A DNA stretch of 64,000 nucleotides, taken from the NCBI RefSeq assembly GCF_050920415.1, contig NZ_CP169309.1; one strand, 5' to 3'. Positions 8,124 to 57,734 of this stretch are shown here, piece after piece. The notes below the pieces were generated by a model. It had not been told where the DNA came from. It ran no database searches and saw only the letters and a program-made list of their open reading frames with translations. The position numbers were made by a program, and so were the translations under genes. The DNA is from Escherichia coli (lineage in GTDB: Bacteria; Pseudomonadota; Gammaproteobacteria; Enterobacterales; Enterobacteriaceae). How positions within the stretch are numbered: position 1 is the stretch's first letter; each line of letters opens with the position of its first letter.

Positions 8124-8381
8124 CCGCTGTGTGGAGTCGCATTATAGGGAGAGTTCAAAATGAGTCAACGCATTTTCTAAAGAAATTGTTCGTTCGTCGT
8201 AAATTTAAGCAAGATGATCGCAAAACAGACCGTGTTGCGCAATTTGTCAACGAAAACAATAATGCGTAAGGTTGCAACCCGAACTACATTGAGGAATCAG
8301 GCGGGAGTGATAGAATATCGCCCACTCAATTTTTCCAGGATTTGCCGGTTGTCGGCATCTTTCTAAACGTAAGGCCATTTC

Positions 8382-9797: not shown

Positions 9798-9817
9798 TTA
9801 GCGCATAAAAGATAAAC

Positions 9818-9848
9818 GGCAGGAGAGATACCCCTGCCGTTTTTTATT
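9818..9848 (+). terminator. Rho-independent terminator after gltX
   Basis: cggcagg...cctgccg hairpin followed by T6. Confidence 0.7.
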
Positions 9849-10240: not shown

Positions 10241-10241
10241 A

Positions 10242-21149: not shown

Positions 21150-21163
21150 GAAGGACAATCCTG

Positions 21164-23286: not shown

Positions 23287-23310
23287 TCTCCTGATTAACC
23301 CGGAGCGGTT

Positions 23311-25806: not shown

Positions 25807-25808
25807 CG

Positions 25809-26666
25809 TTAGCCCTGAAAACGTGCGCTATACTCTCCCGGCGTCAGACCAAACTGACGCCGGAAAACGCGACAAAAATAGTCGCTATCCGGAAACCCGC
25901 AACGCTGCGCCACTTCATGAATCGACAGATGATATTTCTGCAAAATCATCCTCGCCTTCGCCATTCGCACCCAACGCACATATTCGATAAAACGCATTGT
26001 TCCATGCTGCGCAAACAGTTTTGACAGATGATTGGGCGTGATATTAAAAAACTGCGCCACGTTCTCACGGGTGAGCGGCTGGGCATAATTATCCTGAACC
26101 CAGTTACAAATGCTGTGATAGAGAAAATCGCCGCGCGGCTGCGAATTACCCGGCGGCATATTCACCACGTTGCGGCAGAGATGCAGCAAACTTAACACCA
26201 GCGGCTGAATGATATTCTGCTCCAGCGGCGAACGGCTAAGATGGGTGAGGGCAGTAAGCATTGCTTCACCTTCGCCGCGTTGCAGGCTGGGAAGTTGGAT
26301 CTGGCGAACTGGATGCAACAACGACGTGGTGCGGCTATCGTAATACGATAAACCAAGCCAGGTCGGCGCGAACACCAGACTTAACAGCATTACCGGTTTG
26401 TTGTTGACCGGTAAATTAGCCGCGCGCGCCGGAATAAACAGCATTTCTCCTTCCACTATATGTTGCTGCTTTGCTTCCAGCAGATTGCCGTATTCGCCGC
26501 GCAGCACGATATCCAGACGGGGAAAATCAATACATAAACTGCCCACCGGCAACGAGGCCGGCTGGCTGGCAAACCAGACGCGCCCCAGTAGTTGCGGGTT
26601 AAGCACCAGGCCGCTGAACAGATCGGCGAAAAATTGTTGATCGGCGGGCAAGCCTGTTGCTTTCAT
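25809..26666 (-). CDS. ypdC: AraC-family transcriptional regulator YpdC
   Basis: 285 aa; C-terminal AraC HTH (ARMILQKYHLSIHEVAQRCGFPDSDYFCRVFRRQFGLTPGEY). Confidence 0.9.
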   Translation of the reverse strand: MKATGLPADQQFFADLFSGLVLNPQLLGRVWFASQPASLPVGSLCIDFPRLDIVLRGEYGNLLEAKQQHIVEGEMLFIPARAANLPVNNKPVMLLSLVFAPTWLGLSYYDSRTTSLLHPVRQIQLPSLQRGEGEAMLTALTHLSRSPLEQNIIQPLVLSLLHLCRNVVNMPPGNSQPRGDFLYHSICNWVQDNYAQPLTRENVAQFFNITPNHLSKLFAQHGTMRFIEYVRWVRMAKARMILQKYHLSIHEVAQRCGFPDSDYFCRVFRRQFGLTPGEYSARFQG

Positions 26667-42800: not shown

Positions 42801-43418
42801 ATTATGTCCGGTAGAAACGGATGCTAATGCCTGATATAAATTTGTAAAAGAGATAATTGTTGCTTTTGGAAATGATTGATGAATTACCTCGTCTGGGGGG
42901 TAATTTGCTACCCGAGCAATATTTACTGGTTTTGGTGAGGTAAGCGGTCGCATTGAGTCGTGAAGGGTGGTTACCAGCGCCGGAAAGGTAATTATCAATG
43001 GTTTGGTTGCAGCAATGTCATTATTAAGAGGCGGCGAAGTAACTAAATGTGATAACACTATATCGACTTCACCTTCTGCAAGCGCGTCCATTGCTTTTTG
43101 ATGATCTGCGTATTCCCGGAGTGTTAATTTGATATTTAACGCTCTTTTTAAAAGATTTAAATAATCAGCATTAATACCACGAACCCGTTGCTGCGAATCG
43201 GTATGCAACAACGTAGCCGTTTGGGACTTGTGTACTGCAATCACAAGATTTTTTTTGCTCGCTAACCAACGTAATTCCTTGTTGCTCAGACGTAGTGGAT
43301 CAAGCGTGACACGGTTGTTACTACTGATGCCACGATATTCGATGTAATCTTCGTCTGCGAAACTTATGGTCGACCAAAGACCACAACAGAGAAGAAAAAA
43401 ATAGGGTAAAAACTTCAT
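39825..43418 (-). CDS. evgS: Hybrid sensor histidine kinase EvgS
   Basis: 1197 aa; two periplasmic solute-binding-like domains, TM, PAS, HisKA (MSHEIRTP), HATPase, receiver and HPt domains. Confidence 0.95.
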   Translation of the reverse strand: MKFLPYFFLLCCGLWSTISFADEDYIEYRGISSNNRVTLDPLRLSNKELRWLASKKNLVIAVHKSQTATLLHTDSQQRVRGINADYLNLLKRALNIKLTLREYADHQKAMDALAEGEVDIVLSHLVTSPPLNNDIAATKPLIITFPALVTTLHDSMRPLTSPKPVNIARVANYPPDEVIHQSFPKATIISFTNLYQALASVSTGHNDYFIGSNIITSSMISRYFTHSLNVVKYYNSPRQYNFFLTRKESVILNEVLNRFVDALTNEVRYEVSQNWLDTGNLAFLNKPLELTEHEKQWIKQHPDLKVLENPYSPPYSMTDENGSVRGVMGDILNIITLQTGLRFSPITVSHNIHAGTQLNPDGWDILPGAIYSEDRENNVLFAEAFITTPYVFVMQKAPDSEQTLKKGMKVAIPYYYELHSQLKEMYPEVEWIQVDNASAAFHKVKEGELDALVATQLNSRYMIDHYYPNELYHFLIPGVENASLSFAFPRGEPELKDIINKALNAIPPSEVLRLTEKWIKMPNVTIDTWDLYSEQFYIVTTLSVLLVGSSLLWGFYLLRSVRRRKVIQGDLENQISFRKALSDSLPNPTYVVNWQGNVISHNSAFEHYFTADYYKNAMLPLENSDSPFKDVFSNVHEVTAETKENRTIYSQVFEINNGTEKRCINHWHTLCNLPASDNAVYICGWQDITETRDLIHALEVERNKAINATVAKSQFLATMSHEIRTPISSIMGFLELLSGSGLSKEQRVEAISLAYATGQSLLGLIGEILDVDKIESGNYQLQPQWVDIPTLVQNTCHSFGAIAASKSIALNCSSTLPERYLVKIDPQAFKQVLSNLLSNALKFTTEGAVKITTSLVHIDDNHAVIKMTIMDTGSGLSQEEQQQLFKRYSQTTAGRQQTGSGLGLMICKELIKNMQGDLSLESHPGIGTTFTITIPVEITQQVATVEAKAEQPMTLPEKLSILIADDHPTNRLLLKRQLNLLGYDVDEATDGVQALHKVSMQHYDLLITDVNMPNMDGFELTRKLREQNSSLPIWGLTANAQANEREKGLNCGMNLCLFKPLTLDVLKTHLSQLHQVAHIAPQYRHLDIEALKNNTANDLQLMQEILMTFQHETHKDLPAAFHALEAGDNRTFHQCIHRIHGAANILNLQKLINLSHQLEITPVSDDSKPEILKLLNSVKEHIAELDQEIAVFCQQND

Positions 43419-43422
43419 GTGA

Positions 43423-44037
43423 TTAGCCGATTTTGTTACGTTGCGCGAATGTGTAAAGATCCATCAGTGATTTACATTCTAATTTTTCCATCAGGCGACT
43501 TTTATACGTGCTGACAGTTTTGTTGCTGATGAACATTTTTTCCGCAATGTCATTATTGTCCTTGCCATCAAGAATATACCTCATGACACTAATTTCTTGT
43601 TTCGATAAGGAGTCGAGTTTTTGCTGGTCGGACGTTAAACTTCCAACAAACCGGTTGAGAGAGAAAGGGAAATAGCAGTAGCCATTTTTTGCAGCTTCAA
43701 TAGCCGCAATGATATTGTTCATGCCTTCTTTTTTACTCACGAATCCATTAGCGCCAGCATCAGCACAATGTTTCCCGTAAAAATGGTCATTTTTAGCGGA
43801 GACGATAATAATAATTCCGCTATATTGGCGCTTCCTCAGCGTTTCTAACACCTGGATACCGTTAACTCCGGGGATATCGACATCAATGATGACGATATCA
43901 GGTTTAAGTGTTTCCACCCGCTGAACGGCACTTCCCCCTTCAGTCAACTCCGCTAAGATTTCAATATCGTTTTTGATCAATAAATTACGAATTGCTGCGA
44001 TAGCAAGAGGATGGTCATCAATAATTATTGCGTTCAT
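43423..44037 (-). CDS. evgA: Response regulator EvgA (NarL/LuxR family)
   Basis: 204 aa; receiver domain plus LuxR-type HTH. Confidence 0.95.
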   Translation of the reverse strand: MNAIIIDDHPLAIAAIRNLLIKNDIEILAELTEGGSAVQRVETLKPDIVIIDVDIPGVNGIQVLETLRKRQYSGIIIIVSAKNDHFYGKHCADAGANGFVSKKEGMNNIIAAIEAAKNGYCYFPFSLNRFVGSLTSDQQKLDSLSKQEISVMRYILDGKDNNDIAEKMFISNKTVSTYKSRLMEKLECKSLMDLYTFAQRNKIG

Positions 44038-44452
44038 AGATTATTCCCTTTGCAATGAAGCATCTCCCTTCTCCCTGTAGTAATACAGACATAAGGCATC
44101 ATCTCATTTTCTCAATCAAAATAAGAAAATTTGAGCTTCCTTTAAGATAATTCAACAAGTATACCATATAAATAGTCGGCATAAATGAAATGTCAACAAT
44201 AAAATCAGGGATAATACCGCTAACTTATAGTTTCAAATGAGTACTATAAGGCTTCTTATTAATCCTACAGGCGTAAGAATTGTATTGCAAAAGTCACGGT
44301 TTAGTCCTCTGTTGTATCTTCTGCAACTCCTTTAAATTAGGCCTCCAACGTTCCTGGGATAATGTGTAACACATGCACTGTGTTTGATATGAAGAATGAA
44401 TACTCTTTTCATTCAATTCATAAATTTCATCTATGCGAAATGAGAGATAATA

Positions 44453-45616
44453 GTGGAACAGATTAATTCAAATAAAAAACATTCTGACAGAAGAAAATAT
44501 TTTGCTTTATTAGCAGTGGTTTTATTTATTGCGTTTTCAGGAGCCTATGCCTATTGGTCACTGGAATTAGAAGACATGATTAGTACAGATGACGCCTATG
44601 TTACGGGGAATGCTGATCCAATTTCTGCACAAGTCTCAGGCAGTGTCACTGTCGTTAATCATAAAGATACGAACTTTGTTCGACAGGGTGACATTTTAGT
44701 TTCACTGGATAAAACTGATGCTACGATTGCACTCAATAAAGCTAAAAATAATCTGGCAAATATTGTGCGACAAACGAATAAACTATACTTACAGGATAAA
44801 CAATACAGTGCCGAAGTCGCTTCAGCACGTATCCAGTATCAACAATCTTTAGAAGATTATAATCGTCGTGTGCCGCTAGCAAAGCAGGGGGTTATTTCAA
44901 AAGAAACGCTGGAGCACACCAAAGATACGTTAATAAGTAGCAAAGCGGCATTGAATGCAGCTATTCAGGCTTATAAAGCGAACAAAGCCTTAGTAATGAA
45001 CACACCATTAAATCGCCAGCCACAAGTTGTTGAAGCTGCGGATGCAACCAAAGAAGCCTGGTTAGCGCTTAAGCGTACGGATATTAAGAGTCCGGTTACT
45101 GGTTATATTGCCCAGCGAAGTGTGCAGGTTGGCGAAACAGTGAGTCCTGGACAATCGTTAATGGCTGTCGTACCGGCACGTCAAATGTGGGTTAATGCCA
45201 ACTTTAAAGAAACACAACTCACGGATGTACGGATTGGTCAATCGGTTAATATAATCAGCGATCTTTATGGTGAAAATGTTGTGTTTCATGGTCGGGTGAC
45301 AGGGATCAATATGGGAACCGGCAATGCGTTCTCCTTATTACCTGCACAAAATGCGACAGGGAACTGGATCAAAATCGTTCAGCGTGTACCGGTTGAGGTG
45401 TCTCTGGATCCAAAAGAACTCATGGAACATCCCTTGCGCATTGGTTTATCGATGACTGCAACCATTGATACCAGGAACGAAGACATTGCCGATATGCCTG
45501 ATCTGGCTTCATCCGTGACGTCAATGCCTGCTTACACCAGTAAGGCCTTAGTTATCGATACCAGTCCGATAGAAAAAGAGATTAACAACATTATTTCTCA
45601 TAATGGACAACTTTAA
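44453..45616 (+). CDS. emrK: Multidrug efflux membrane fusion protein EmrK
   Basis: 387 aa; HlyD-family periplasmic adaptor. Confidence 0.9.
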   Translation: MEQINSNKKHSDRRKYFALLAVVLFIAFSGAYAYWSLELEDMISTDDAYVTGNADPISAQVSGSVTVVNHKDTNFVRQGDILVSLDKTDATIALNKAKNNLANIVRQTNKLYLQDKQYSAEVASARIQYQQSLEDYNRRVPLAKQGVISKETLEHTKDTLISSKAALNAAIQAYKANKALVMNTPLNRQPQVVEAADATKEAWLALKRTDIKSPVTGYIAQRSVQVGETVSPGQSLMAVVPARQMWVNANFKETQLTDVRIGQSVNIISDLYGENVVFHGRVTGINMGTGNAFSLLPAQNATGNWIKIVQRVPVEVSLDPKELMEHPLRIGLSMTATIDTRNEDIADMPDLASSVTSMPAYTSKALVIDTSPIEKEINNIISHNGQL

Positions 45617-47154
45617 TGGCAATCACTAAATCAACTCCGGCACCATTAACCGGTGGGACGTTATGGTGCGTCACTATTGCATTGTCATTAGCGACGTTTA
45701 TGCAAATGTTGGACTCCACTATTTCTAACGTCGCAATACCCACAATATCTGGCTTTCTCGGAGCATCAACGGACGAAGGCACATGGGTTATCACATCGTT
45801 TGGCGTAGCAAATGCCATTGCGATCCCTGTTACCGGCAGGCTGGCACAAAGAATAGGCGAATTAAGGTTATTTTTACTATCAGTAACCTTCTTTTCGCTG
45901 TCTTCATTAATGTGTAGTCTTTCGACTAATCTTGATGTTCTTATATTTTTTAGAGTCGTCCAGGGATTAATGGCGGGGCCGTTAATTCCATTGTCACAGA
46001 GTTTATTATTAAGGAATTATCCGCCAGAAAAAAGAACATTTGCTTTGGCGTTATGGTCAATGACCGTAATTATCGCTCCGATTTGTGGGCCGATATTGGG
46101 TGGCTATATTTGTGATAACTTTAGTTGGGGATGGATATTTTTAATCAATGTCCCTATGGGGATTATCGTCCTGACATTATGTTTAACTTTACTTAAAGGA
46201 AGAGAAACTGAAACTTCACCGGTCAAAATGAATTTACCAGGGTTGACCCTGTTAGTGCTCGGTGTTGGTGGCTTGCAAATTATGCTTGATAAAGGGCGCG
46301 ATCTGGATTGGTTTAACTCGAGTACAATCATAATATTAACAATAGTGTCAATTATTTCTCTGATCTCTTTAGTCATTTGGGAGTCGACCTCAGAGAACCC
46401 AATTCTTGACCTCAGTTTATTCAAGTCGCGTAATTTCACCATTGGTATTGTGTGTATCACATGCGCATATTTATTTTACTCTGGGGCGATTGTACTTATG
46501 CCGCAGTTGCTGCAGGAAACTATGGGGTATAATGCGATATGGGCCGGGCTTGCCTATGCGCCAATCGGCATAATGCCACTATTAATATCGCCTTTAATAG
46601 GACGTTATGGCAACAAAATTGATATGCGTGCATTGGTTACATTTAGTTTTTTGATGTATGCGGTTTGCTATTACTGGCGTTCTGTGACATTTATGCCAAC
46701 GATTGATTTCACAGGCATCATTTTGCCACAGTTTTTCCAGGGATTCGCCGTTGCCTGTTTCTTTTTACCCTTAACAACGATTTCGTTTTCAGGGTTGCCA
46801 GATAATAAATTTGCCAATGCCTCGAGTATGAGTAATTTTTTTCGTACCCTGTCAGGATCAGTTGGTACGTCGTTGACAATGACGTTGTGGGGACGACGCG
46901 AATCGTTACACCATAGTCAGTTGACAGCAACCATCGATCAATTTAACCCCGTGTTTAATTCATCATCACAAATTATGGATAAATACTATGGTTCGCTTTC
47001 AGGGGTTCTTAATGAAATTAATAATGAAATAACTCAGCAGTCACTTTCAATTTCTGCAAATGAGATTTTCCGTATGGCGGCTATTGCTTTTATCTTACTT
47101 ACGGTATTGGTTTGGTTTGCGAAACCGCCGTTTACAGCGAAAGGTGTTGGGTGA
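45616..47154 (+). CDS. emrY: Multidrug efflux MFS transporter EmrY
   Basis: 512 aa, 14-TM MFS (EmrB-like); translationally coupled to emrK. Confidence 0.9.
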   Translation: MAITKSTPAPLTGGTLWCVTIALSLATFMQMLDSTISNVAIPTISGFLGASTDEGTWVITSFGVANAIAIPVTGRLAQRIGELRLFLLSVTFFSLSSLMCSLSTNLDVLIFFRVVQGLMAGPLIPLSQSLLLRNYPPEKRTFALALWSMTVIIAPICGPILGGYICDNFSWGWIFLINVPMGIIVLTLCLTLLKGRETETSPVKMNLPGLTLLVLGVGGLQIMLDKGRDLDWFNSSTIIILTIVSIISLISLVIWESTSENPILDLSLFKSRNFTIGIVCITCAYLFYSGAIVLMPQLLQETMGYNAIWAGLAYAPIGIMPLLISPLIGRYGNKIDMRALVTFSFLMYAVCYYWRSVTFMPTIDFTGIILPQFFQGFAVACFFLPLTTISFSGLPDNKFANASSMSNFFRTLSGSVGTSLTMTLWGRRESLHHSQLTATIDQFNPVFNSSSQIMDKYYGSLSGVLNEINNEITQQSLSISANEIFRMAAIAFILLTVLVWFAKPPFTAKGVG

Positions 47155-47262
47155 TGGTAAAAAGAGAGAGCTATAGCAGGTAAGACGGTAGAATCTTAAG
47201 CCTGCGCCATCGGCAGCATCGTTCACCCAGGGAAAGGATGGTGATGCTGCGTTGAAACGTTA

Positions 47263-48591
47263 TTAACGGCCTTTAGCCAGATATTGCTTCATCTCTTCTT
47301 CCGGCACCATTCCACCTCCTGTCGCCCACACCAGATGAGTGGCATTACGCAGTTGTTCTGTGCTGAAACCTTGCATCTGTTGGTAACTTACTGATGCGCA
47401 CACGCGCTGAGGCCCAGCCATACCCGCCAGTGCTGAAGGTTCAAGACGAATGTCTTCTTCCTGCGCCAGCCAGCCAAGCATGTCATACATGGTTTGATCG
47501 CTAAGGGTATAGAAGCCATCCAGCAGACGCTCCATTGCTCGCCCGACAAAGCCTGATGCGCGACCAACAGCAAGGCCATCCGCTGCGGTAAGGTTGTCGA
47601 TACCAATATCCTGAACAGAAATCTGATTGTGTAGTCCGGTATGGACGCCTAACAGCATACAAGGAGAGTGCGTGGGTTCGGCAAAAAAGCAGTGAACATG
47701 ATCGCCAAATGCCAGTTTAAGACCGAATGCGACGCCACCAGGACCACCGCCAACGCCACACGGCAGATAGACAAACAGAGGGTTACCAGCATCGACGATA
47801 CGACCTTGCTGGGCAAATTGCGCTTTAAGACGCTGGCCTGCGACGGAATACCCAAGGAACAACGTGCGGGAATTCTCGTCATCAATAAAGAAACAGTTCG
47901 GGTCAGACTGCGCTGCTTTACGTCCTTCCTCGACGGCAACCCCATAATCTTGCTCATATTCCACGACCGTAACGCCATGGCTGCGCAGTTTCGCTTTTTT
48001 CCATGCCCGGGCATCAGCAGACATATGTACTGTCACCTTAAAGCCAATGCGGGCGCTCATAATACCGATTGATAACCCCAGATTTCCGGTTGAGCCCACA
48101 GCAATGCTGTATTGGCTAAAGAACTGCTTAAACTCCGGAGAAAGCAGTTTGCTGTAGTCATCTTCAAGCGTCAGCAACCCTGCTTCCAGAGCCAGTTTTT
48201 CTGCATGTGCCAGGGCTTCATAAATCCCGCCGCGTGCTTTTATGGAGCCGGAAATAGGCAAATGGCTATCTTTTTTCAGTAACAGTTGCCCGCTGATCGG
48301 TTGCTGATATTCCTTTTCCAGCCGTTTTTGCATAGCCGGAATGGCAACCAGTTCTGATTCAATAATCCCTCCAGAGGCAGCCGTTTCAGGAAATGCTTTT
48401 GCCAGATAGGGGGCAAAACGAGATAAGCGCGCATGGGCGTCTTGAACATCCTGTTCGGTCAGGCCAACATAAGGTAAACCTTCAGCCAATGAGGTCGTGC
48501 CAGGATTGAACCAGGTGGTTTCTTTAAGAGCAACCAGATCCTTTACCAACGGATACTGGGCGATGAGCGAGTTCATTTTAGCGTTTTCCAT
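47263..48591 (-). CDS. dsdA: D-serine ammonia-lyase (D-serine dehydratase)
   Basis: 442 aa; PLP-lysine motif region ([13 protein letters not shown]). Confidence 0.95.
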
Positions 48592-48608
48592 AGTACGTCT
48601 CTTTGCGC

Positions 48609-48791
48609 TTAGATGATAAATGACAGCAGGAATGTGCCCGCCAGAGCGACGACTGAAGCGATAAATGTCGCTGTCGTATAGTATTTATATGTTTCACTGA
48701 GCGTAGCGCCGCAAAATTGTTTCATCAGCCAGAAAAACGAGTCCGTAACGATCGTGCAGCCAATCGCAATAATTTCCGGGCTGATGTCTGG
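48609..48791 (-). pseudogene. dsdX: 3' remnant of dsdX (D-serine permease, GntP family): only the last 60 codons remain
   Basis: Minus-strand frame translates to ...[56 protein letters not shown], a GntP-type C-terminus, 17 nt upstream of the dsdA start; the frame is closed by a stop at 48792-48794. Confidence 0.6.
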
Positions 48792-49047
48792 TTACAGCCA
48801 CAGCACAATGATCCATATTTATATTTTTTCTCCGGGTGGGTGATGCCAGTCGGCATGTTTTACCTACTTGTCTGCATGGTGACTCGTTGGCGAGAACAGA
48901 GGCGGAATTGGTTACAATTGTCCGGGAATTCTTGTTATTTTTTACTGTATTGTCGTGTCGGGTGATAGGACGTTAAGAATATCGCTGGATCTCGCCAGTG
49001 ACGTCTGTTTCTGCTACAGTGCCCGTTTTACGGCAAACGGCTTGGGT

Positions 49048-50043
49048 ATGGCTTCATTAAAGGATGTCGCACGCCTGGCGGGAGTGTCGATGATGACTGT
49101 CTCCCGGGTGATGCATAATGCAGAATCTGTGCGTCCTGCAACGCGTGACCGCGTATTGCAGGCAATCCAAACCCTGAATTATGTTCCTGATCTTTCCGCT
49201 CGTAAGATGCGCGCTCAGGGACGTAAGCCGTCGACTCTCGCCGTGCTGGCGCAGGATACTGCTACCACTCCTTTCTCTGTTGATATTCTGCTTGCCATTG
49301 AACAAACCGCCAGCGAGTTTGGCTGGAATAGTTTTTTAATCAATATTTTTTCTGAAGATGACGCTGCCCGCGCGGCACGTCAGCTGCTTGCCCTCCGTCC
49401 GGATGGCATTATCTATACTACAATGGGACTGAGGCATATCACGCTGCCTGAGTCTCTGCATGGTGAAAATATTGTATTGGCGAACTGTGTGGCGGATGAC
49501 CCAGCGTTACCCAGTTATATCCCTGATGATTACACTGCCCAATATGAAGCAACACAGCATTTGCTCGCGGCGGGCTATCGTCAACCGTTATGCTTCTGGC
49601 TACCGGAAGGTGCGTTGGCAACAGGGTATCGTCGGCAGGGATTTGAGCAGGCCTGGCGTGATGCTGGACGAGATCTGGCTGAGGTGAAACAATTTCACAT
49701 GGCCATAGGTGATGATCACTACACCGATCTCGCAAGTATACTCAATGCCCACTTCCAGTCTGGAAAACCAGATTTTGATGTTCTGATTTGTGGTAACGAT
49801 CGCGCAGCCTTTGTGGCTTATCAGGTTCTTCTGGCGAAGGGGGTACGTATCCCGCAGGATGTCGCCGTAATGGGCTTTGATAATCTGGTTGGCGTCGGGC
49901 ATCTGTTTTTACCGCCGCTGACCACAATTCAGCTTCCACATGACATTATCGGGCGGGAAGCTGCATTGCATATTATTGAAGGTCGTGAAGGGGGAAGGGT
50001 AACGCAGATCCCTTGCCCGCTGTTGCTCCGTTGTTCCACCTGA
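49048..50043 (+). CDS. cscR: LacI-family sucrose operon repressor CscR
   Basis: N-terminal HTH (MASLKDVARLAGVSMMTVSRV) plus periplasmic-binding-like fold; start chosen at this Met rather than the ORF-track start 31 codons upstream. Confidence 0.85.
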   Translation: MASLKDVARLAGVSMMTVSRVMHNAESVRPATRDRVLQAIQTLNYVPDLSARKMRAQGRKPSTLAVLAQDTATTPFSVDILLAIEQTASEFGWNSFLINIFSEDDAARAARQLLALRPDGIIYTTMGLRHITLPESLHGENIVLANCVADDPALPSYIPDDYTAQYEATQHLLAAGYRQPLCFWLPEGALATGYRRQGFEQAWRDAGRDLAEVKQFHMAIGDDHYTDLASILNAHFQSGKPDFDVLICGNDRAAFVAYQVLLAKGVRIPQDVAVMGFDNLVGVGHLFLPPLTTIQLPHDIIGREAALHIIEGREGGRVTQIPCPLLLRCST

Positions 50044-50050
50044 TATTATG

Positions 50051-51484
50051 TTACCCCAGTTGCCAGAGTGCTCCATGTTGCAGCACGGCCACTCCGTGGG
50101 CGGCATAGAGCGACAGTTCCCGTTCTTCTGGCTGCGGATAGATTCGGCTACTCATCACAGCTTCCCCGTCGTTAATAAATACTTCCACGGATGATGTATC
50201 GATAAATATCCTTAGGGCGAGCGTGTCACGCTGCGGGAGGGGAATACTACGGTAACCATCTAAATTCTCGTGTGGGTAATACCGCCACAAAACAAGTCGC
50301 TCAGATTGGTTATCAATATACAGCCGCATTCCCGTGCCGAGCTGTAATCCGTAATGTTCGGCATCGCTGTTCTTCAGAGCCCAGTGCAACTGAATCTCAA
50401 CCGCTTGCGCGTTTTCCTGCAAAACATATTTGTTGCTGATTGTGTGGGGAGAGATTGATTGATGCTGCTGGCGTAACGACTCAGCTTCGTGTACCGGGCG
50501 TTGTAGGAGTTTGCCATTGCTCTCTGAAAGCTCGCGCGCCAGCGTCATGCAGCCTGCCCAGCCTTCACGTTTTGAGGGCATTGGCGATTCCCACATATCC
50601 ATCCAGCCGATAACAATACGCCGACCATCCTTCGCTAAAAAGCTTTGTGGTGCATAAAAGTCATGCCCATTATCAAGTTCAGTAAAATGCCCGGATTGTG
50701 CAAAAAGTCGTCCTGGCGACCATATTCCGGGTATTACACCACTTTGAAAGCGATTTCGATAATTGTATCCCTCGGCATTCATTCCCTGCGGGGAAAACAT
50801 CAGATAATGTTGATCGCCAAGGCTGAAAAAGTCCGGACATTCCCACATATAGCTTTCACCCGCATCAGCGTGGGCCAGTACGCGATCGAAAGTCCATTCA
50901 CGCAATGAACTGCCGCGATAAAGCAGGATCTGTCCCGTGTTGCCTGGGTCTTTCGCCCCGACTACCATCCACCAGGTGTCGGCTTCACGCCACACTTTAG
51001 GATCGCGGAAGTGCATGATTCCTTCTGGTGGAGTGAGGATCACACCTTGTTTCTCGAAATGAATACCATCCCGGCTGGTAGCCAGACATTGTACTTCACG
51101 AATTGCATCGTCATTACCTGCACCATCGAGCCAGACGTGGCCGGTGTAGATAAGTGAGAGGACACCATTGTCATCAACAGCACTACCTGAAAAACACCCG
51201 TCTTTGTCATTCTCGTCTCCTGGCGCTAGCGCAATAGGCTCGTGCTGCCAGTGGATCATATCGTCGCTGGTGGCATGTCCCCAGTGCATTGGCCCCCAGT
51301 GTTCGCTCATCGGGTGATGCTGATAAAACGCGTGATAACGATTGTTAAACCAGATCAGGCCGTTTGGATCGTTCATCCACCCGGCTGGAGGCGCGAGGTG
51401 AAAATGGGGATAAAAAGTATTCCCCCGGCGCTCGTGAAGTTTTGCTAGTGCGTTTTGCGCCGCATGCAATCGAGATTGCGTCAT
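50051..51484 (-). CDS. cscA: Sucrose-6-phosphate hydrolase / invertase CscA (GH32)
   Basis: GH32 N-terminal catalytic motif (WMNDPNGL) and the RDP and EC motifs; start uncertain by 3 codons. Confidence 0.9.
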   Translation of the reverse strand: MTQSRLHAAQNALAKLHERRGNTFYPHFHLAPPAGWMNDPNGLIWFNNRYHAFYQHHPMSEHWGPMHWGHATSDDMIHWQHEPIALAPGDENDKDGCFSGSAVDDNGVLSLIYTGHVWLDGAGNDDAIREVQCLATSRDGIHFEKQGVILTPPEGIMHFRDPKVWREADTWWMVVGAKDPGNTGQILLYRGSSLREWTFDRVLAHADAGESYMWECPDFFSLGDQHYLMFSPQGMNAEGYNYRNRFQSGVIPGIWSPGRLFAQSGHFTELDNGHDFYAPQSFLAKDGRRIVIGWMDMWESPMPSKREGWAGCMTLARELSESNGKLLQRPVHEAESLRQQHQSISPHTISNKYVLQENAQAVEIQLHWALKNSDAEHYGLQLGTGMRLYIDNQSERLVLWRYYPHENLDGYRSIPLPQRDTLALRIFIDTSSVEVFINDGEAVMSSRIYPQPEERELSLYAAHGVAVLQHGALWQLG

Positions 51485-51699
51485 TTTAATCATCCTGGTT
51501 AAGCAAATTTGGTGAATTGTTAACGTTAACTTTTATAAAAATAAAGCCCCTTATCTTTATAAATGTGATTAATATCACAAATGTTAACGTTAACTATGAC
51601 GTTTTGTGATCGAATGTGCATGTTTTAGTAAATCCATGACGATTTTGCGAAAAAGAGGTTTATCACTATGCGTAAGTCAGATGAATTTGAGGGAAAAAA

Positions 51700-52614
51700 A
51701 TGTCAGCCAAAGTATGGGTTTTAGGGGATGCGGTTGTCGATCTCTTGCCTGAATCAGACGGGCGCCTACTGCCTTGTCCTGGCGGCGCGCCAGCTAACGT
51801 TGCGGTGGGAATCGCCAGATTAGGCGGAATAAGTGGGTTTATAGGCCGGGTGGGTGATGATCCTTTTGGCGCGTTAATGCAAAGAACGCTGCTAACGGAG
51901 GGAGTCGATATCACGTATCTGAAGCAGGATGAATGGCACCGAACATCCACGGTGCTTGTCGATCTGAACGATCAGGGGGAACGTTCATTTACGTTTATGG
52001 TCCGCCCTGGTGCCGATCTTTTTTTAGAGACGACTGACTTGCCCTTCTGGCGACATGGCGAATGGTTACATCTCTGTTCTATTGCGTTGTCTGCTGAACC
52101 TTCGCGTACCAGCGCATTTACTGCGATGACGGCGATCCGGCATGCCGGAGGTTTTGTCAGCTTCGATCCCAATATTCGTGAAGATCTGTGGCAAGACGAG
52201 CATTTGCTCCGCTTGTGTTTGCGACAGGCGCTACAACTGGCGGATGTCGTCAAGCTCTCGGAAGAAGAATGGCGACTTATCAGCGGAAAAACACAGAACG
52301 ATCGGGATATATGTGCTCTGGCAAAAGAGTATGAGATCGCCATGCTGTTGGTGACTAAAGGTGCAGAAGGGGTGGTGGTCTGTTATCGAGGACAAGTTCA
52401 CCATTTTGCTGGAATGTCTGTGAATTGTGTCGATAGCACGGGGGCGGGAGATGCGTTCGTTGCCGGGTTACTCACAGGTCTTTCCTCTACGGGATTAGAG
52501 ACCGATGAGAGAGAAATGCGACGAATTATCGATCTCGCTCAACGTTGTGGAGCGCTTGCAGTAACGGCGAAAGGGGCAATGACAGCGCTGCCATGTCGAC
52601 AAGATCTGGAATAG
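51700..52614 (+). CDS. cscK: Fructokinase CscK (PfkB/ribokinase family)
   Basis: 304 aa; PfkB signature (DSTGAGDAFVAG). Confidence 0.9.
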   Translation: MSAKVWVLGDAVVDLLPESDGRLLPCPGGAPANVAVGIARLGGISGFIGRVGDDPFGALMQRTLLTEGVDITYLKQDEWHRTSTVLVDLNDQGERSFTFMVRPGADLFLETTDLPFWRHGEWLHLCSIALSAEPSRTSAFTAMTAIRHAGGFVSFDPNIREDLWQDEHLLRLCLRQALQLADVVKLSEEEWRLISGKTQNDRDICALAKEYEIAMLLVTKGAEGVVVCYRGQVHHFAGMSVNCVDSTGAGDAFVAGLLTGLSSTGLETDEREMRRIIDLAQRCGALAVTAKGAMTALPCRQDLE

Positions 52615-52685
52615 TGAGAAATAAACGGCGAGGCCGTTCTTGTCTCTGAATAGGACGTGAATATTTTAACGACAGGCAGGTAATT

Positions 52686-53933
52686 ATGGCACTGAATATA
52701 CCATTCAGAAATGTGTACTATCGTTTTGCATCCAGTTACTCATTTCTCTTTTTTATTTCCTGGTCGCTGTGGTGGTCGTTATACGCTATTTGGCTGAAAG
52801 GACATCTAGGGTTGACTGGGACGGAATTAGGTACACTTTATTCGGTCAACCAGTTTACCAGTATTCTATTTATGATGGTCTACGGCATCGTCCAGGATAA
52901 ACTCGGTCTGAAGAAACCGCTTATCTGGTGTATGAGTTTCATCCTGGTCTTGACCGGACCGTTTATGATTTACGTTTATGAACCGTTACTGCAAAGCAAT
53001 TTTTCTGTAGGTCTAATTTTGGGGGCGCTCTTTTTTGGCTTGGGGTATCTGGCGGGCTGCGGTCTGCTTGATAGCTTCACCGAAAAAATGGCACGAAATT
53101 TTCATTTCGAATATGGAACAGCGCGCGCCTGGGGATCTTTTGGCTATGCGATTGGCGCGTTCTTTGCTGGCATATTTTTCAGTATCAGTCCCCATATCAA
53201 CTTCTGGTTGGTTTCGCTATTTGGCGCTGTATTTATGATGATCAACATGCGTTTTAAATATCAGGATCAGCAGTGCGTAGCGGCAGATGCGGGAGGGGTA
53301 AAAAAAGAGGATTTTATTGCAGTTTTCAAGGACCGAAACTTCTGGATTTTCGTCATATTTATTGTGGGGACGTGGTCTTTCTATAACATTTTTGATCAAC
53401 AGCTCTTTCCTGTTTTTTATGCAGGTTTATTCGAATCACACGATGTAGGAACGCGCCTGTATGGTTATCTCAACTCATTCCAGGTTGTACTCGAAGCGCT
53501 GTGCATGGCCATTATTCCTTTCTTTGTTAATCGGGTAGGGCCAAAAAATGCATTACTTATCGGTGTTGTGATTATGGCGTTGCGTATTCTTTCCTGCGCA
53601 CTGTTCGTTAATCCCTGGATTATTTCATTAGTGAAGCTTTTACATGCCATTGAGGTTCCACTGTGTGTCATTTCCGTCTTCAAATACAGCGTGGCAAACT
53701 TTGATAAACGCCTGTCGTCGACGATCTTTCTGATTGGTTTTCAAATTGCCAGTTCGTTGGGGATTGTGTTGCTTTCAACGCCGACTGGAATACTTTTTGA
53801 CCATGCAGGTTACCAGACGGTTTTCTTCGTAATTTCGGGTATTGTCTGCCTGATGTTGTTATTTGGCATTTTCTTCCTGAGTAAAAAACGTGAGCAAATG
53901 GTGATGGAAACGCCTGTACCTTCTGCAATATAG
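52686..53933 (+). CDS. cscB: Sucrose:H+ symporter CscB (MFS, LacY-like)
   Basis: 415 aa, 12-TM oligosaccharide:H+ symporter family. Confidence 0.9.
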   Translation: MALNIPFRNVYYRFASSYSFLFFISWSLWWSLYAIWLKGHLGLTGTELGTLYSVNQFTSILFMMVYGIVQDKLGLKKPLIWCMSFILVLTGPFMIYVYEPLLQSNFSVGLILGALFFGLGYLAGCGLLDSFTEKMARNFHFEYGTARAWGSFGYAIGAFFAGIFFSISPHINFWLVSLFGAVFMMINMRFKYQDQQCVAADAGGVKKEDFIAVFKDRNFWIFVIFIVGTWSFYNIFDQQLFPVFYAGLFESHDVGTRLYGYLNSFQVVLEALCMAIIPFFVNRVGPKNALLIGVVIMALRILSCALFVNPWIISLVKLLHAIEVPLCVISVFKYSVANFDKRLSSTIFLIGFQIASSLGIVLLSTPTGILFDHAGYQTVFFVISGIVCLMLLFGIFFLSKKREQMVMETPVPSAI

Positions 53934-54368
53934 ACGTAAACTCTTTCCGGTTGTTGTCGATAGCTCTATATCCCTCAACCGGAAAATAATAATACCAAAA
54001 TGCTTAGCGCGGCTAATAATCGCCTAATCCAAACGCCTCATTCATGTTCTGGAACAGCCGCTCAAATGTACTCAGGATACGCGGTTCGCTGATTTCCAGG
54101 AAATTGTCGTAATTCAGCGACCTGTCCCGTGTATCACGGGCCTGCTAATCCATCAAGGAATGCATTGCGGAGTGAAGTATCGAGTCAAGCCAGATTTCGC
54201 GATCAGGATTCTGTGTGATGATTACATTGCCAGGCCCGGGGCTGTTTAGTCATCGCCGCACAGTGCTGAGATTTCAACCTGTTGCAGGGAAAATGAGTAG
54301 ATTTAGGGCAAGTGTGCTGCCAAACCCAACTTTTACGCGGGGAAGGTAGATTTCGTTGGAAGGATAAA

Positions 54369-54383
54369 TGGTGTCCCCTGCAG
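54369..54383 (-). repeat. att core: 15-nt copy of the 3' end of tRNA-Arg argW (CTGCAGGGGACACCA on the minus strand)
   Basis: Exact match to the recalled argW 3' end; no complete tRNA gene here, so this is the duplicated core at the int-distal prophage junction. Confidence 0.7.
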
Positions 54384-54456
54384 ACATCTACTTGAAGCGA
54401 CAGGGGATTGATTGGAATGGTGTTTTTTAGATGTGAGAAATATTTTACCCGCTATT

Positions 54457-54657
54457 TTACCCATTGGCGCGGCTTAAGAGCTTATTTTTGAATTCACAAT
54501 GGTCACGATATAACCATCTTGCTCGCCCGTGGATAACTTTGGCTTTTGGCAGGTCGCCGGACTTAATCCGGTCATAGATGAAGGTTTTACCAAAGCCAGT
54601 ATCGGCCATGATGAATTTCAAATCAACCAGTGAATCAGGCTGTAGTTCGTGTTGCAT
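54457..54657 (-). CDS. torI: Excisionase / recombination directionality factor TorI (AlpA-like winged helix)
   Basis: 66-aa product MQHELQPDSLVDLKFIMADTGFGKTFIYDRIKSGDLPKAKVIHGRARWLYRDHCEFKNKLLSRANG matches my recollection of KplE1 TorI. Confidence 0.8.
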   Translation of the reverse strand: MQHELQPDSLVDLKFIMADTGFGKTFIYDRIKSGDLPKAKVIHGRARWLYRDHCEFKNKLLSRANG

Positions 54658-54701
54658 GAGTGCTATCTCCGAATAGGGAATCGAACCTGCAAATCAGGCA
54701 A

Positions 54702-54722
54702 TAAAAAACCGCATTGATGCGG
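54702..54722 (-). terminator. Rho-independent terminator downstream of the leftward early operon
   Basis: ccgca/tgcgg hairpin followed on the minus strand by T6. Confidence 0.55.
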
Positions 54723-54782
54723 CGATGGTAGGTCTGGATATCATTGAGAAATGAACAGGCCTCATCGAGTGTGAGGCTGTGG

Positions 54783-55127
54783 TTAGTCCTTGCGTAACTC
54801 GCTAATTCTTCTGTAAGTCTCTGGTGCTTTGTTTCCGTGTATCTTCATTTCAGACTTCAACAGAGCAACGAGGGAATCCCATTCGTTGAGGATGCCTTTG
54901 AATGCCGGAACGCGCTTTGCAACCTTGTTGAATGAATCTCTGATTTCTGGAATCTGCTCAACAAGTGCAACGCATCGTCTGAAATCGGCTGCGTCATGGG
55001 GAGCGCCGAAGCTATGACCATAGATATTCTTTTTCAGTCCACATGCGATTGAGGCAAGAGTTGCGCTACTGATGCCAACATCGCCAGTCGATTGCCATTT
55101 CAAAACCTTCATAGCCAAATCTGACAT
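54783..55127 (-). CDS. Hypothetical prophage early protein (114 aa)
   Basis: ORF only; no recognised motif. Confidence 0.5.
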   Translation of the reverse strand: MSDLAMKVLKWQSTGDVGISSATLASIACGLKKNIYGHSFGAPHDAADFRRCVALVEQIPEIRDSFNKVAKRVPAFKGILNEWDSLVALLKSEMKIHGNKAPETYRRISELRKD

Positions 55128-55227
55128 TTCTTGTCTCCATAAAACAAAACTCGCCGTAGCGAGTTCAGATAAAATAAATCCCCGCGAGTGCGAGGATTGT
55201 TATTCACCTTTAACGGCAAGTTGCAGG

Positions 55228-55896
55228 TTAGCCACGGTTTACCTCCTGAGGCGGTTCTGCTGCAAAATACGCAATACCTTTATCCCAGATGGATTTAATG
55301 GTCGTCCACGTGACTGGTACTTTAATTTCAATCCGCCCGCTACCGTCACAGGTATCGCAATCATCATCGCCAAAGCATTCCGGGCAGCTGATAAACGTAG
55401 TTTCTGAAAATTCACCGGATAGCGCACCCTTAGCGCCGTTCTCGGCTGTTAGTCTCTTCGGCACCATGACCCAACCATCCGGAGTTACCGGAGAGTTGCC
55501 CGACAGCTCGTTCAACTTGTAAGTTTGGCTTACAGGTTCGGCTTCCAGTTCTGCTATGCGTTTTTTTGCTGCTTCCAGCTCAACACGCAGCCTCCCAACC
55601 GTTAGTGCAATATTCTCGTTCTCCTGGTCGCGGTGTTTGATGTATTGCTGGTTTCTTTCCCGTTCATCCAGCAGCGCCTGCACTACTTCAGGGTTGAAAG
55701 CTGCGATATAACGAGCGTTGTTCTCTGCGTTTTTCTGTCCATCAAAGCCGGTCCATTTGATAACGTCTTCACATCGTTTATCACCGGGCGTATGCACCGC
55801 ATACGTACCAGTACCCGGTGAAATAAATGCGGACCATTCGCCTTGTGTTGCCTTTTTTGCTATCTCACGCAGTGCCTGATAGTCAATCTTGCTCAC
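55228..55896 (-). CDS. Ea22-like prophage protein with DnaJ-type CxxCxGxG zinc-finger pair
   Basis: Start placed at the GTG preceded by AGGAGG (the ORF-track ATG would overlap the upstream gene by about 100 nt); coiled-coil middle; CPECFGDD and CDTCDGSG motifs. Confidence 0.55.
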   Translation of the reverse strand: MSKIDYQALREIAKKATQGEWSAFISPGTGTYAVHTPGDKRCEDVIKWTGFDGQKNAENNARYIAAFNPEVVQALLDERERNQQYIKHRDQENENIALTVGRLRVELEAAKKRIAELEAEPVSQTYKLNELSGNSPVTPDGWVMVPKRLTAENGAKGALSGEFSETTFISCPECFGDDDCDTCDGSGRIEIKVPVTWTTIKSIWDKGIAYFAAEPPQEVNRG

Positions 55897-56200
55897 TGGC
55901 TGCCTCCTTTGCTGGGCTTTCGAACTTCTGAGTGGTTGTATCAAACTCAAGCAACTTAACCACGTCATCAAACAGGACATAATCGCCATCAGAATCTTCA
56001 GTCATGTCAGCGCCACAATCCTGACCGAACGAGTCACAACCATCCATATCAAGCTCGTATCGCTTGAGTTTTGCGATATTTGATAAATTCAGCGCCAGTA
56101 CAGCAAGGTCATAAACCTCGTCAGCGGTATACCCGGCACCATGCCCATACATTTCAATGCGGGATATGATTTCTTCTACACGTTGTTTTGTGATCGTCAT
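55883..56200 (-). CDS. Hypothetical acidic prophage protein (105 aa)
   Basis: ORF translationally coupled to neighbours. Confidence 0.5.
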   Translation of the reverse strand: MTITKQRVEEIISRIEMYGHGAGYTADEVYDLAVLALNLSNIAKLKRYELDMDGCDSFGQDCGADMTEDSDGDYVLFDDVVKLLEFDTTTQKFESPAKEAASEQD

Positions 56201-56742
56201 TTTTGCTCACCTCCCTGTTCTTCCAGAAAAATACGCATAGCCTCAAGCATCTCTTCGGTGTCATACGGTGACAACTTGTCACGCAGGATGTGCTCAATGC
56301 TGTTAATGAACTTGCGGATTGCTTTGCGTTCAATTTCAGCCAGGAAAGCATCGGTGGCTGGGGTGTCTGATTGCAGAGACTTTGCGCGATAGTCATTCCA
56401 CCCTCTTGCATACATGGGATTAACTTGCACTCCATCTTTTACGCAATATGCCTGCCCTCCACGGTTGATAACATTGATTTCGTCCATAGCGCCAGCCTTC
56501 AGCCCCGCATTCTCCGCCGCCAGCGCCGAAAACTTCTCGTGTGCCAACTTAACAGCTGCATCAGCCTGCTTAATTGACTCAATCGCTTTCTGGTGGTCTT
56601 CGTACAGAGCCGAAATCTTGGCCTCCGCTTCAGCAAATTTACGCACCAGATATTCAGCGTTTGTTTCGTTAACCTTTAAATCTCGGGGGATGCATTTACC
56701 TTTCAGAAATCCATCCATCTCAATTAGTGACATTTGTTTCAT
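56197..56742 (-). CDS. Hypothetical prophage protein with coiled-coil region (181 aa)
   Basis: ORF; start overlaps stop of upstream small ORF (ATGA). Confidence 0.5.
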
Positions 56743-56903
56743 TTCTTCCCACTCCGCAACATCGCGTTCAGATATTTGTTTTGATTCACTGAAGGAAAAG
56801 AATTTCTCTTAAGCAATTCCTCTCTCGATGGCATTGGCTTTACGCGTTGGCGAATAATCATTTCTGCCGGAAGAATTCCGGGATTGTATGCAAGTCCTCT
56901 CAT
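56739..56903 (-). CDS. Small ORF (54 aa), not in the supplied track
   Basis: ATG preceded by AAAGAGGA RBS, fills the gap between flanking genes, stop overlaps next start (ATGA); product [54 protein letters not shown]. Confidence 0.4.
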
Positions 56904-56919
56904 GGTAAATTCCTCTTTG

Positions 56920-57234
56920 TTAATTTATTCGTATGCCTGTTCTCTCTTCATCAAGTTTTTTTAGCTTGTATCGCATAGCTCTTACTGAATAAATTGAGCG
57001 GCAGGTTGCAATTGCTATTTCTTCTGCGGAGAACTTACCGAAAAGTGATACTTCGGCTCTTGTCCAGCGTCTTCCACGAAGTCGGCTAACAATGTCAGCT
57101 CCAATCCTTGTTGCTTTCGCCATTACTGCTTTTTCAGTCCTTTCCAGTTTTTCAGCGATAACTTCAACTGGCATTGTCGCCGCCACTTCGCGCAAGAAAT
57201 CGACTTCCCATTTCTCCCATGGAGTCTTTTTCAT
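56920..57234 (-). CDS. Hypothetical prophage protein (104 aa)
   Basis: ORF in the operon. Confidence 0.5.
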
Positions 57235-57245
57235 AGGCGATACCG

Positions 57246-57734
57246 TTATTTGATAAGAAGTGAAGGTTTCCCAACTTTGAGTTGAGCGCCGGGGATATTT
57301 ATTCCTGCTTTTAGTTGGTGTTTGATTGCCAGTTTGTCGGCTTTAATTGTTGTTTCAAACTCAACGTATTCTGGAGGAAGGGCGCTTGAGTCGATGATTT
57401 CTACAGTTTCTGACGGTTTGCGGATTGTTACCTGGTGAATACCTGCTCGAATCTTTTTCTTTCCAACCATTTCAAGCGATGACGCTATATACGTCATAAT
57501 GCTATCAATCTTATTTTGAATTACTGCTGCTCTTTCATTCAGTGACTTTGCCTCTTCCTTGAGGCGTTCAGCATAACCAGACTCATTTTTAATAATGGCA
57601 AGAAGTTGCTCTATTTTATCGGTAAATTCTCCTTCCATGCCTTCTATTGTGTCAGCAATCATCTCTGGTTCTAAATCTGAATCCATCAATTTTGCGTATT
57701 CATTGGCAATTTCATACAGTTTGCTCACTGGCAA
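57246..57734 (-). CDS. Siphovirus Gp157-family protein
   Basis: 162-aa acidic coiled-coil protein immediately downstream of recT; family call from recall of recT-linked Gp157-like proteins. Confidence 0.5.
   Translation of the reverse strand: MPVSKLYEIANEYAKLMDSDLEPEMIADTIEGMEGEFTDKIEQLLAIIKNESGYAERLKEEAKSLNERAAVIQNKIDSIMTYIASSLEMVGKKKIRAGIHQVTIRKPSETVEIIDSSALPPEYVEFETTIKADKLAIKHQLKAGINIPGAQLKVGKPSLLIK

Follow-up and report, generated by a model that had tools for sequence, protein, structure and literature searches.

The window analysed here, a stretch of 64,000 nucleotides from Escherichia coli, carries between positions 47263 and 54368 the E. coli argW–dsd locus in its standard csc-type form, with cscRAKB occupying the place of dsdC and of the greater part of dsdX. 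The features of the locus and its right flank are as follows:

47263–48591, minus strand: dsdA, 442 aa, D-serine ammonia-lyase, intact (equivalog TIGR02035, 807 bits, cut-off 368)
48592–48721, minus strand: retained dsdA-proximal upstream region, 130 nt present, including the position of the dsdA promoter element of O'Boyle et al.
48609–48805, minus strand: dsdX 3′ remnant (pseudogene), equivalent to K-12 DsdX residues 374–445, with an in-frame deletion of 21 bp and a TAT-to-TAA change at 48792–48794
48806–49047, no strand: left end of the csc island, from the dsdX′ junction (48805/48806) to the cscR start; presumed cscR promoter
49048–50043, plus strand: cscR, 331 aa, LacI-family sucrose repressor (LacI-family matches, none above an equivalog cut-off)
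50051–51484, minus strand: cscA, 477 aa, GH32 sucrose hydrolase (invertase) (scrB_fam TIGR01322, 480 bits, cut-off 356)
51485–51699, no strand: control region of the divergent cscA and cscKB, holding two operator-like palindromes (TGTTAACGTTAACT; 51518–51531 and 51582–51595)
51700–52614, plus strand: cscK, 304 aa, fructokinase (NF006957, 501 bits, cut-off 450)
52686–53933, plus strand: cscB, 415 aa, sucrose:H+ symporter of the oligosaccharide MFS (TIGR00882, 590 bits, cut-off 220)
54016–54219, minus strand: DUF4942-family gene fragment with an internal stop, a mobile-element remnant in the rightmost part of the island
54368–54383, minus strand: argW 3′-end duplicate (attR core), right boundary of the csc island and start of the prophage
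54384–64000, minus strand: lambdoid/P22-like prophage at argW (torI/xis at 54457–54657; Ea22, RecT, and repressor region), extending past the window

A blastn comparison with a K-12-like genome revealed that K-12 homology ends at 48805 and restarts at 54368, the 3′ end of argW. Between these points, 5,562 bp of csc DNA stand where K-12 has 2,367 bp (positions 4727–7093 of the K-12-like reference locus, L003). The lost K-12 segment comprises 84% of dsdX, the dsdX–dsdC control region, dsdC, and 94 bp beyond dsdC. This direct alignment bears out an earlier note on the same DNA, which had read the csc genes as a replacement of dsdC and most of dsdX, and whose end coordinate, 54368, is exactly the point where K-12 homology resumes. 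Both boundaries are the canonical ones, 48805/48806 on the left in the truncated dsdX and 54367/54368 on the right at the argW 3′ end. The left junction (...CAGCA/CAATGATCCATATTTATAT) is nucleotide-identical in O157:H7, strain 536, and the present divergent lineage, and all three have argW at the right island end; according to the literature, O157:H7 belongs to phylogroup E and strain 536 to B2. Structural comparison with dsdCXA of K-12 and CFT073 revealed that (i) dsdA is orthologous, with 96.6% nucleotide identity and 10 differences in 442 aa; (ii) the neighbours emrY, emrK, and evgAS are the same; (iii) the last 65 dsdX codons and the dsdX–dsdA spacer are kept; and (iv) dsdC, the dsdC–dsdX control region, and 1,120 of the 1,338 bp of dsdX are missing here. 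A tblastn search of the 64-kb window with K-12 DsdC found no homologue (best E = 0.5), as the note had claimed; in terms of a functional dsdCXA system, DsdA is present, and DsdC and DsdX are not. A search for flanking repeats or a duplicated argW/att at the left junction, which would mark site-specific integration, found only short repeats at chance level, and no foreign-DNA signature was seen in the base composition of the csc island.

The dsdX remnant is short and decayed. A tblastn search of the window with K-12 DsdX recovered residues 374–445 only, at 48806–48612 (E = 3e-28), and the piece aligns with positions 379–445 of 445 of the DsdX equivalog profile at 98 bits (cut-off 618). Full-length DsdX is not encoded, and the residues that are left are interrupted by the 7-aa deletion and the stop. 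The remnant reported previously at 48609–48791 is real, but the stop with which it was said to end at the island boundary is not that boundary: dsdX homology runs 14 nt further, to 48805, and the TAA at 48792–48794 is a point mutation. Both the nonsense change and the 21-bp in-frame deletion are lineage-specific, with neither found in O157, 536, or K-12. In strain MFDS1022581, RefSeq annotation treats the equivalent 183 nt as a pseudogene for a partial DsdX.

The genes cscR, cscA, cscK, and cscB follow the remnant at full length and at the coordinates listed above, as had been proposed. Together with dsdA, they have the same lengths as their O157:H7 counterparts, with zero gaps and zero internal stops, and their dN/dS values against O157 range from 0.05 to 0.17. 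The cscR gene is 96.9% identical in nucleotides to that of O157, and cscB is 95.7% identical to O157 cscB and gap-free; in NZ_CM188745.1, the former is annotated under the same name and the latter as a cscB sucrose MFS transporter. The cscA gene, which is convergent with cscR, is annotated as cscA in all matched genomes, and the GH32 motifs WMNDPNG, RDP, and EC are readable in its translation. A pattern search of the window for TGTTAACGTTAACT returned the two sites of the cscA–cscK spacer at 1 mismatch each, where 0.14 matches were expected by chance; the sole other match (17969–17982, 2 mismatches) is remote from both the csc and the dsd genes. The two palindromes agree with the two 12-bp inverted repeats of Jahreis 2002, as far as these are cited in PMC11251922. 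As read from the sequence, CscB, CscA, CscK, and CscR with the two putative palindromic operators make up a complete csc (non-PTS) regulon. On the basis of homology and the literature, CscB would bring in sucrose with a proton, CscA would cleave it into glucose and fructose, CscK would phosphorylate the fructose, and CscR would repress the divergent cscA and cscKB promoters through the two palindromic operators. The strain is therefore expected to be sucrose-positive. Wild csc-positive strains are reported to grow slowly on sucrose (PMC11251922), and the phenotype may be weak.

The csc regulon is readily distinguished from the PTS-dependent scr regulon (scrKYABR). Both serve sucrose use and have a LacI-family repressor with paired operators, whereas the scr system uses PTS uptake, a sucrose-6-phosphate hydrolase, and a porin, and lies at another chromosomal site with no link to dsd (PMC11251922). 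No scr genes were found in the csc/dsd region.

The dsdA gene is intact, as the earlier note had held: it has the same length as in K-12 and O157, without an internal stop, and its dN/dS against O157 is 0.08 at a dS of about 0.11. In K-12, the dsdX–dsdC intergenic region holds the DsdC-dependent operon promoter. The supposition that dsdA is probably without its promoter is right for this intergenic region, which is gone; it does not hold for the 130 nt upstream of dsdA, which are kept together with the reported proximal element. Positions −1 to −96 of this upstream region are identical to K-12, and substitutions occur at −97, −106, −124, and −129. The proximal dsdA promoter element was placed 115 bp upstream by O'Boyle et al. 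2020 and conferred no D-serine tolerance in EHEC (PMC7486766). On the minus strand upstream of dsdA, no sigma-70-like promoter matching at least 9 of 12 positions was found, the only candidates being four weak matches at 8 of 12; a pattern search found no CscR operator-like site near dsdA.

Taken as a whole, a single old replacement that produced the csc-type allele and left dsdA silent and non-inducible, with a predicted sucrose-positive, D-serine-sensitive phenotype, is in our judgement very probably the right explanation. In this account, one old recombination event would have put a segment of 5.56 kb, carrying cscR, cscA, cscK, cscB, and a mobile-element gene fragment, between the argW 3′ end and approximately codon 373 of dsdX, and the same event would have deleted the first 84% of dsdX, the dsdX–dsdC control region, and dsdC. 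The csc state is the derived one because a truncated dsdX can only be derived. Although intact, dsdA would have neither the activator DsdC nor the operon promoter that depends on it, and is therefore expected to be all but silent and not to be induced by D-serine. Consequently, the expected phenotype is sucrose-positive and D-serine-sensitive with non-inducible dsdA, and the strain is predicted to be unable to use D-serine. In EHEC with the same allele, dsdA is silent, there is no growth on D-serine, and D-serine inhibits growth (PMC7486766).

Two alternatives concern the history and the completeness of the dsd genes. That the insertion here was an independent, convergent event, distinct from that of O157, W, and 536, might be argued from the identity of only 95–97% to the O157 island and from the argW region being a known recombination hotspot (PMC4366372). 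The reading is nevertheless scarcely credible: the dsdX breakpoint is nucleotide-identical across three distant lineages with the right end at argW in all, and the dS of the island (0.09–0.18) is comparable to that of dsdA (0.11) and below that of emrK (0.24), as expected for co-inherited DNA. In effect, the shared junction already refutes convergent insertion. If the source genome had a second, complete dsdCXA at another site, as K1 strains do and 536 apparently does, D-serine catabolism would be normal; such two-copy strains are documented, for Moritz & Welch 2006 by the title and for NMEC CE10 in PMC7486766, and in strain 536 a dsdA-containing query matched at two places. The genome-wide dsdC search that the earlier note had suggested was run on MFDS1022581, a complete genome with 100% identity to window positions 1–10304 and 41804–54383, and found no dsdC and no second dsdA on the whole chromosome; as the source genome is represented by 64 kb only, the absence of a second dsdCXA rests on this near-identical proxy. 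A chimeric query of dsdA and reversed K-12 dsdC, searched with megablast (sensitivity about 85% identity or more), matched at one place in MFDS1022581 and at one in 2020CK-00188, the closest prophage-bearing relative, against two in the median genome, and had no plasmid matches. We therefore regard a second copy as very unlikely.

A further alternative accepts the replacement and questions the silence of dsdA, which could be transcribed without DsdC: the retained proximal promoter in the dsdX remnant might drive it, or read-through from the sucrose-induced cscA promoter, antisense over cscR, might reach it. The strain would then still have a useful D-serine detoxification, now answering to another signal. 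Some expression of this kind is conceivable because the proximal promoter position is retained and dsdA is under strong purifying selection (dN/dS 0.08). Of the 130 nt retained upstream, the first 96 equal K-12, and the 179 nt at 48509–48687, covering the dsdA start and upstream region, are without substitutions in a lineage that elsewhere differs by approximately 3–5%. Moreover, cscA and dsdA lie on the same strand with only weak terminator-like hairpins (5–7 pairs) between them, and the EHEC cscAp can drive dsdA after deletion of cscR (PMC7486766). By contrast, D-serine is toxic to wild-type EHEC of the same architecture, and a wild-type cscAp-to-dsdA reporter fusion gave fluorescence significantly below that of the deletion-mutant fusions (PMC7486766); the lack of a nearby CscR operator-like site and of a minus-strand sigma-70-like site of at least 9/12 likewise argues against it. 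Expression of dsdA without DsdC thus appears unlikely here. The related idea that the orphan dsdA keeps a selectable, DsdC-independent role and is not a silent relic, for example in constitutive detoxification at a low level, driven by the proximal promoter, or in sucrose/CscR-linked expression via cscA read-through, draws on the combination of purifying selection between two dsdC-less lineages and the invariant 179-nt stretch, and we hold it to be doubtful. The purifying selection could instead stem from recurrent recombination with dsdCXA-positive strains; the dsdA of O157 differs from that of K-12 by a dS of only 0.04 and is much more distant from the dsdA of the window.

The replacement of dsdCX by csc is already known, the replacement itself, the D-serine sensitivity, and the sucrose/D-serine trade-off having been published in 1979, 2002, 2006, 2014, and 2020. 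The csc regulon at argW–dsdA is reportedly that of Bockmann 1992, Jahreis 2002, and Moritz & Welch 2006. Of 5,426 complete E. coli genomes in a database count, 2,645, approximately half, show the whole arrangement, and it is ordinary for the species. The same replacement was described for EDL933, EC3132, and E. coli W (PMC7486766, PMC4366372, PMC3032704, PMC11251922, PMC13054288). With the csc regulons of EC3132, W, and O157:H7 EDL933, the present locus shares the four genes, their order and their orientation, the two operator palindromes, the dsdX breakpoint, the right end at argW, the DUF4942 fragment (likely z3622 in EDL933), an intact dsdA, and the absence of dsdC. It differs in that (i) nucleotide identity is only approximately 95–97%, because the host lineage is divergent; (ii) the dsdX remnant is more decayed, with the 21-bp deletion and the nonsense codon; (iii) the DUF4942 fragment has an internal stop; and (iv) a lambdoid prophage lies in argW beside the island. 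The lab-evolved EHEC variants LCV2 and LCV10B started from the same csc/dsdX′/dsdA architecture and reveal the outcome for dsdA of an altered upstream context: EHEC dsdA was reactivated only by deletions, of 1.1 kb or 5.6 kb, that removed cscR and fused dsdA to cscAp or z3622p (O'Boyle et al. 2020, PMC7486766). Here, cscR and the entire island are intact, without any deletion of this kind.

Two traits of diagnostic and ecological relevance are set by the allele, namely whether E. coli uses sucrose and whether it tolerates or uses D-serine; they are associated with gut versus urinary niche and with LEE carriage. The inverse sucrose/D-serine phenotype has been linked to the csc/dsd locus (PMC13054288, PMC4366372, PMC3032704, PMC11251922), in descriptions repeated since 1979 and with experimental tests in EHEC; these accounts of the same locus agree with the trade-off to which the earlier note had pointed. 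New from the present strain are only the persistence of the same breakpoint in a divergent lineage and the further decay of the dsdX remnant. For annotation, 48609–48805 can be labelled a dsdX pseudogene and a sucrose-positive, D-serine-sensitive phenotype predicted.

The DUF4942 fragment at the right island end was identified by tblastn, with the fragments annotated in O157 and 536 as queries, at 82–84% identity (E = 1e-32 to 3e-39); its reading frame contains one stop, and it is likely the counterpart of O157 z3622. An Rfam scan of 47000–55000 found no RNA family, and a tRNA scan of 40000–64000 found no tRNA because argW itself lies past the prophage, outside the window. The prophage is absent from the otherwise identical MFDS1022581, in which argW directly adjoins the csc island: the intact tRNA-Arg gene begins at the equivalent of 54368, and the 100% identity to the window stops at 54383. 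The prophage is context, separate from the csc/dsd event.

Homology to the K-12-like reference stretch (L003) ended at window position 48805 on the left side and restarted at 54368. The K-12 segment missing from the window (L003 4727–7093, 2,367 bp) comprises 1,120 of the 1,338 bp of dsdX, the dsdX–dsdC intergenic region (217 bp), dsdC (936 bp), and 94 bp downstream of dsdC, and its place is taken by 5,562 bp (48806–54367). The earlier note, which read this locus as a replacement of dsdC and most of dsdX by the csc island, is correct in both finding and interpretation save two small details (described below). As it had said, dsdC is absent from the window: tblastn revealed no match to K-12 DsdC in the 64 kb, and K-12 DsdX matched over residues 374–445 only. 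The gene order, obtained from the ORF map of the window and the annotation of near-identical genomes, is as follows.

Gene order around the csc island
left flank, − strand: evgA
left flank, + strand: emrK, after evgA
left flank, + strand: emrY, between emrK and dsdA
47263–48591, − strand: dsdA
adjoining dsdA, − strand: dsdX 3′ fragment
49048–50043, + strand: cscR
50051–51484, − strand: cscA
51700–52614, + strand: cscK
52686–53933, + strand: cscB
between cscB and the argW copy: non-coding DNA, 434 bp
54368–54383: copy of the argW 3′ end, 16 nt
54457–54657, − strand: torI, first gene of a prophage that extends beyond the window end

DsdA, CscA, CscK, and CscB scored above the curated NCBIfam family cut-offs, CscR was identified as a LacI-family protein, and the 60-aa piece adjoining dsdA matched the DsdX model over its last 67 positions only. 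The lengths of dsdA, cscR, cscA, cscK, and cscB equal those of their O157:H7 counterparts, with no gaps and no stops. The emrY gene, annotated as frameshifted in O157:H7 strain 9.1_Anguil (L002 1608–3055), is intact in the window (512 aa).

The limit between the dsdX remnant and the island had been placed nearly correctly; alignment with K-12, O157, and the closest relative extends dsdX homology by 14 nt, to 48805. The in-frame TAA at 48792–48794 is a TAT(Tyr)-to-TAA change inside the remnant. The remnant of the window lineage also carries a 21-bp in-frame deletion at 48760–48761; the missing 21 bp, present in O157, 536, and K-12, lie between two short direct repeats of the CAATCGC type, and the deletion looks like slippage. 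In O157 and 536 the remnant is undamaged (219 nt). The deletion together with the gained stop codon shows ongoing pseudogene decay specific to the window lineage. The remaining coordinates proved accurate, including the end at 54368.

On the right the island is bounded by the 3′ end of the tRNA-Arg gene argW. In the close relative MFDS1022581, a complete genome that matches the window at 100% identity over 1–10304 and 41804–54383, the start of the tRNA-Arg gene coincides exactly with the equivalent of 54369 and the prophage is absent there. The window argW carries an integrated prophage, so that only the att-core copy is visible; no tRNA genes were found in 40000–64000, and argW itself must lie beyond 64000. 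No flanking att-like repeats were found at the left junction of the island.

In K-12, the DsdC-dependent promoter that drives the dsdXA operon lies in the dsdX–dsdC region. The window has neither this control region nor the activator gene, and the suggestion that dsdA had probably lost its promoter therefore holds for the operon promoter; the proximal element, in the retained 130 nt upstream of dsdA, is kept. Positions −1 to −96 equal K-12, and substitutions occur at −97, −106, −124, and −129. In EHEC, which carries the same allele, the system is non-functional without DsdC, growth is inhibited by D-serine, CscR has no direct action on dsdA, and dsdA is silent, becoming active only after deletions in which cscR is lost and dsdA is joined to cscAp or z3622p, the promoters of cscA and z3622 (O'Boyle et al., PMC7486766). 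Judged by these EHEC data (PMC7486766), the retained dsdA-proximal element is predicted to be insufficient.

A dsdC copy elsewhere in the genome had been set as a check. A chimeric query, composed of window 46000–48591 (emrY′–dsdA) and the reverse complement of K-12 dsdC, hit, at megablast sensitivity, a single place each in MFDS1022581 (100% identity) and 2020CK-00188, against two places in the median genome; plasmids gave no match. These nearest complete relatives, used as proxies for the source genome, therefore lack both dsdC and a second copy of dsdA at this sensitivity. For the query 47100–54700, strain 536 had two places; CE10 is a described two-copy strain (PMC7486766).

Compared with O157, dsdA has 33 synonymous and 9 non-synonymous changes (dN/dS 0.08). 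A 179-nt stretch (48509–48687), made up of the initial 83 nt of dsdA and the adjoining upstream 96 nt, is free of substitutions relative to O157 or K-12, in contrast to the whole dsdA, which differs by ~3%, and the decaying distal dsdX remnant, which differs by ~5–9%. This stretch may be a conserved 5′ regulatory/translation-initiation region, or a recombination tract. A DsdC-independent role retained by dsdA would be a post-hoc reading of this substitution pattern, and we consider it improbable. The conservation of dsdA could equally result from recombination with dsdCXA+ strains, and O157 dsdA is indeed close to K-12 dsdA (dS 0.04).

By homology and the literature, CscB would take up sucrose by proton symport, CscA would hydrolyze it in the cytoplasm, CscK would phosphorylate the fructose, and CscR would repress the divergent cscA and cscKB promoters. 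The palindrome TGTTAACGTTAACT occurs at 51518–51531 and 51582–51595, the sole matches in the window with 1 mismatch; a weaker match with 2 mismatches, at 17969–17982, is far from the csc and dsd genes. The number of matches expected by chance is 0.14. The two palindromes correspond to the two inverted repeats proposed as CscR operators by Jahreis et al., as summarised in PMC11251922.

The swap itself is already known. Earlier work has repeatedly reported that cscRAKB stands in place of dsdC and part of dsdX at the argW hotspot, that D-serine use is lost as a result, and that the sucrose and D-serine phenotypes are inverse (Connolly 2014, PMC4366372; Archer 2011 for E. coli W, PMC3032704; O'Boyle 2020, PMC7486766; Stephens 2024, PMC11251922; a 2026 study of Crohn's disease isolates, PMC13054288; and, as quoted in later papers, Alaeddinoglu & Charles 1979, Jahreis 2002, and Moritz & Welch 2006). 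The replacement is read here as a single event with wide inheritance. The query 47100–54700 was covered at ≥80% in 2,645 of 5,426 complete E. coli genomes. The left junction, CAGCA followed by CAATGATCCATATTTATAT, is identical in O157:H7, B2 strain 536, and the window, and the island right end adjoins argW in 536 and MFDS1022581. The island is 95.7–96.9% identical to that of O157, and the dS values of its genes (0.09–0.18) are within the range of dsdA (0.11) and below emrK (0.24). This divergence fits co-inheritance with the chromosome, or whole-locus transfer by homologous recombination; it is at odds with a separate acquisition. At the island right end lies a decayed DUF4942-family gene fragment (54016–54219, − strand), which has an internal stop in the window and a short-CDS annotation in O157 and 536; it is likely the counterpart of EDL933 z3622 and probably a remnant of the mobile element with which csc arrived.

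Across a roughly 40-kb core-gene flank (8000–48000), the window is ~94–98% identical to K-12, mostly 95–96.5%, and only a handful of genomes reach at least 99%; at 20000–26000, half of the complete E. coli genomes fall in the 90–95% band and only two records reach at least 99%. The window comes from an E. coli lineage that is rare and divergent. Its closest genome is MFDS1022581 (food, Korea), followed by N96 and 2020CK-00188; similarity to the relatives is mosaic, 2020CK-00188 being 99.4% identical at csc and 97.5% at ptsP–fryC.

K-12 lacks a counterpart of window 1–7700 at this position and carries the xapRBA region there instead. The MFDS1022581 annotation assigns to this stretch the type VI secretion genes tssF and tssG, one small HTH gene, and two genes with integrase domains, and because it abuts the tRNA-Lys/tRNA-Val cluster beside gltX, it is a tRNA-associated genomic island. 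The lambdoid/P22-like prophage in argW (54384–64000), directly after the csc island, carries torI/xis, DUF551/DUF4752, Ea22-like, RecT-like, and repressor-region genes. Since MFDS1022581 lacks it while being otherwise 100% identical up to 54383, the prophage was gained or lost recently. Its make-up is mosaic: Louie, Kapi1, and HK106, the phages that match best, cover only 37–38% at 96–97% identity.
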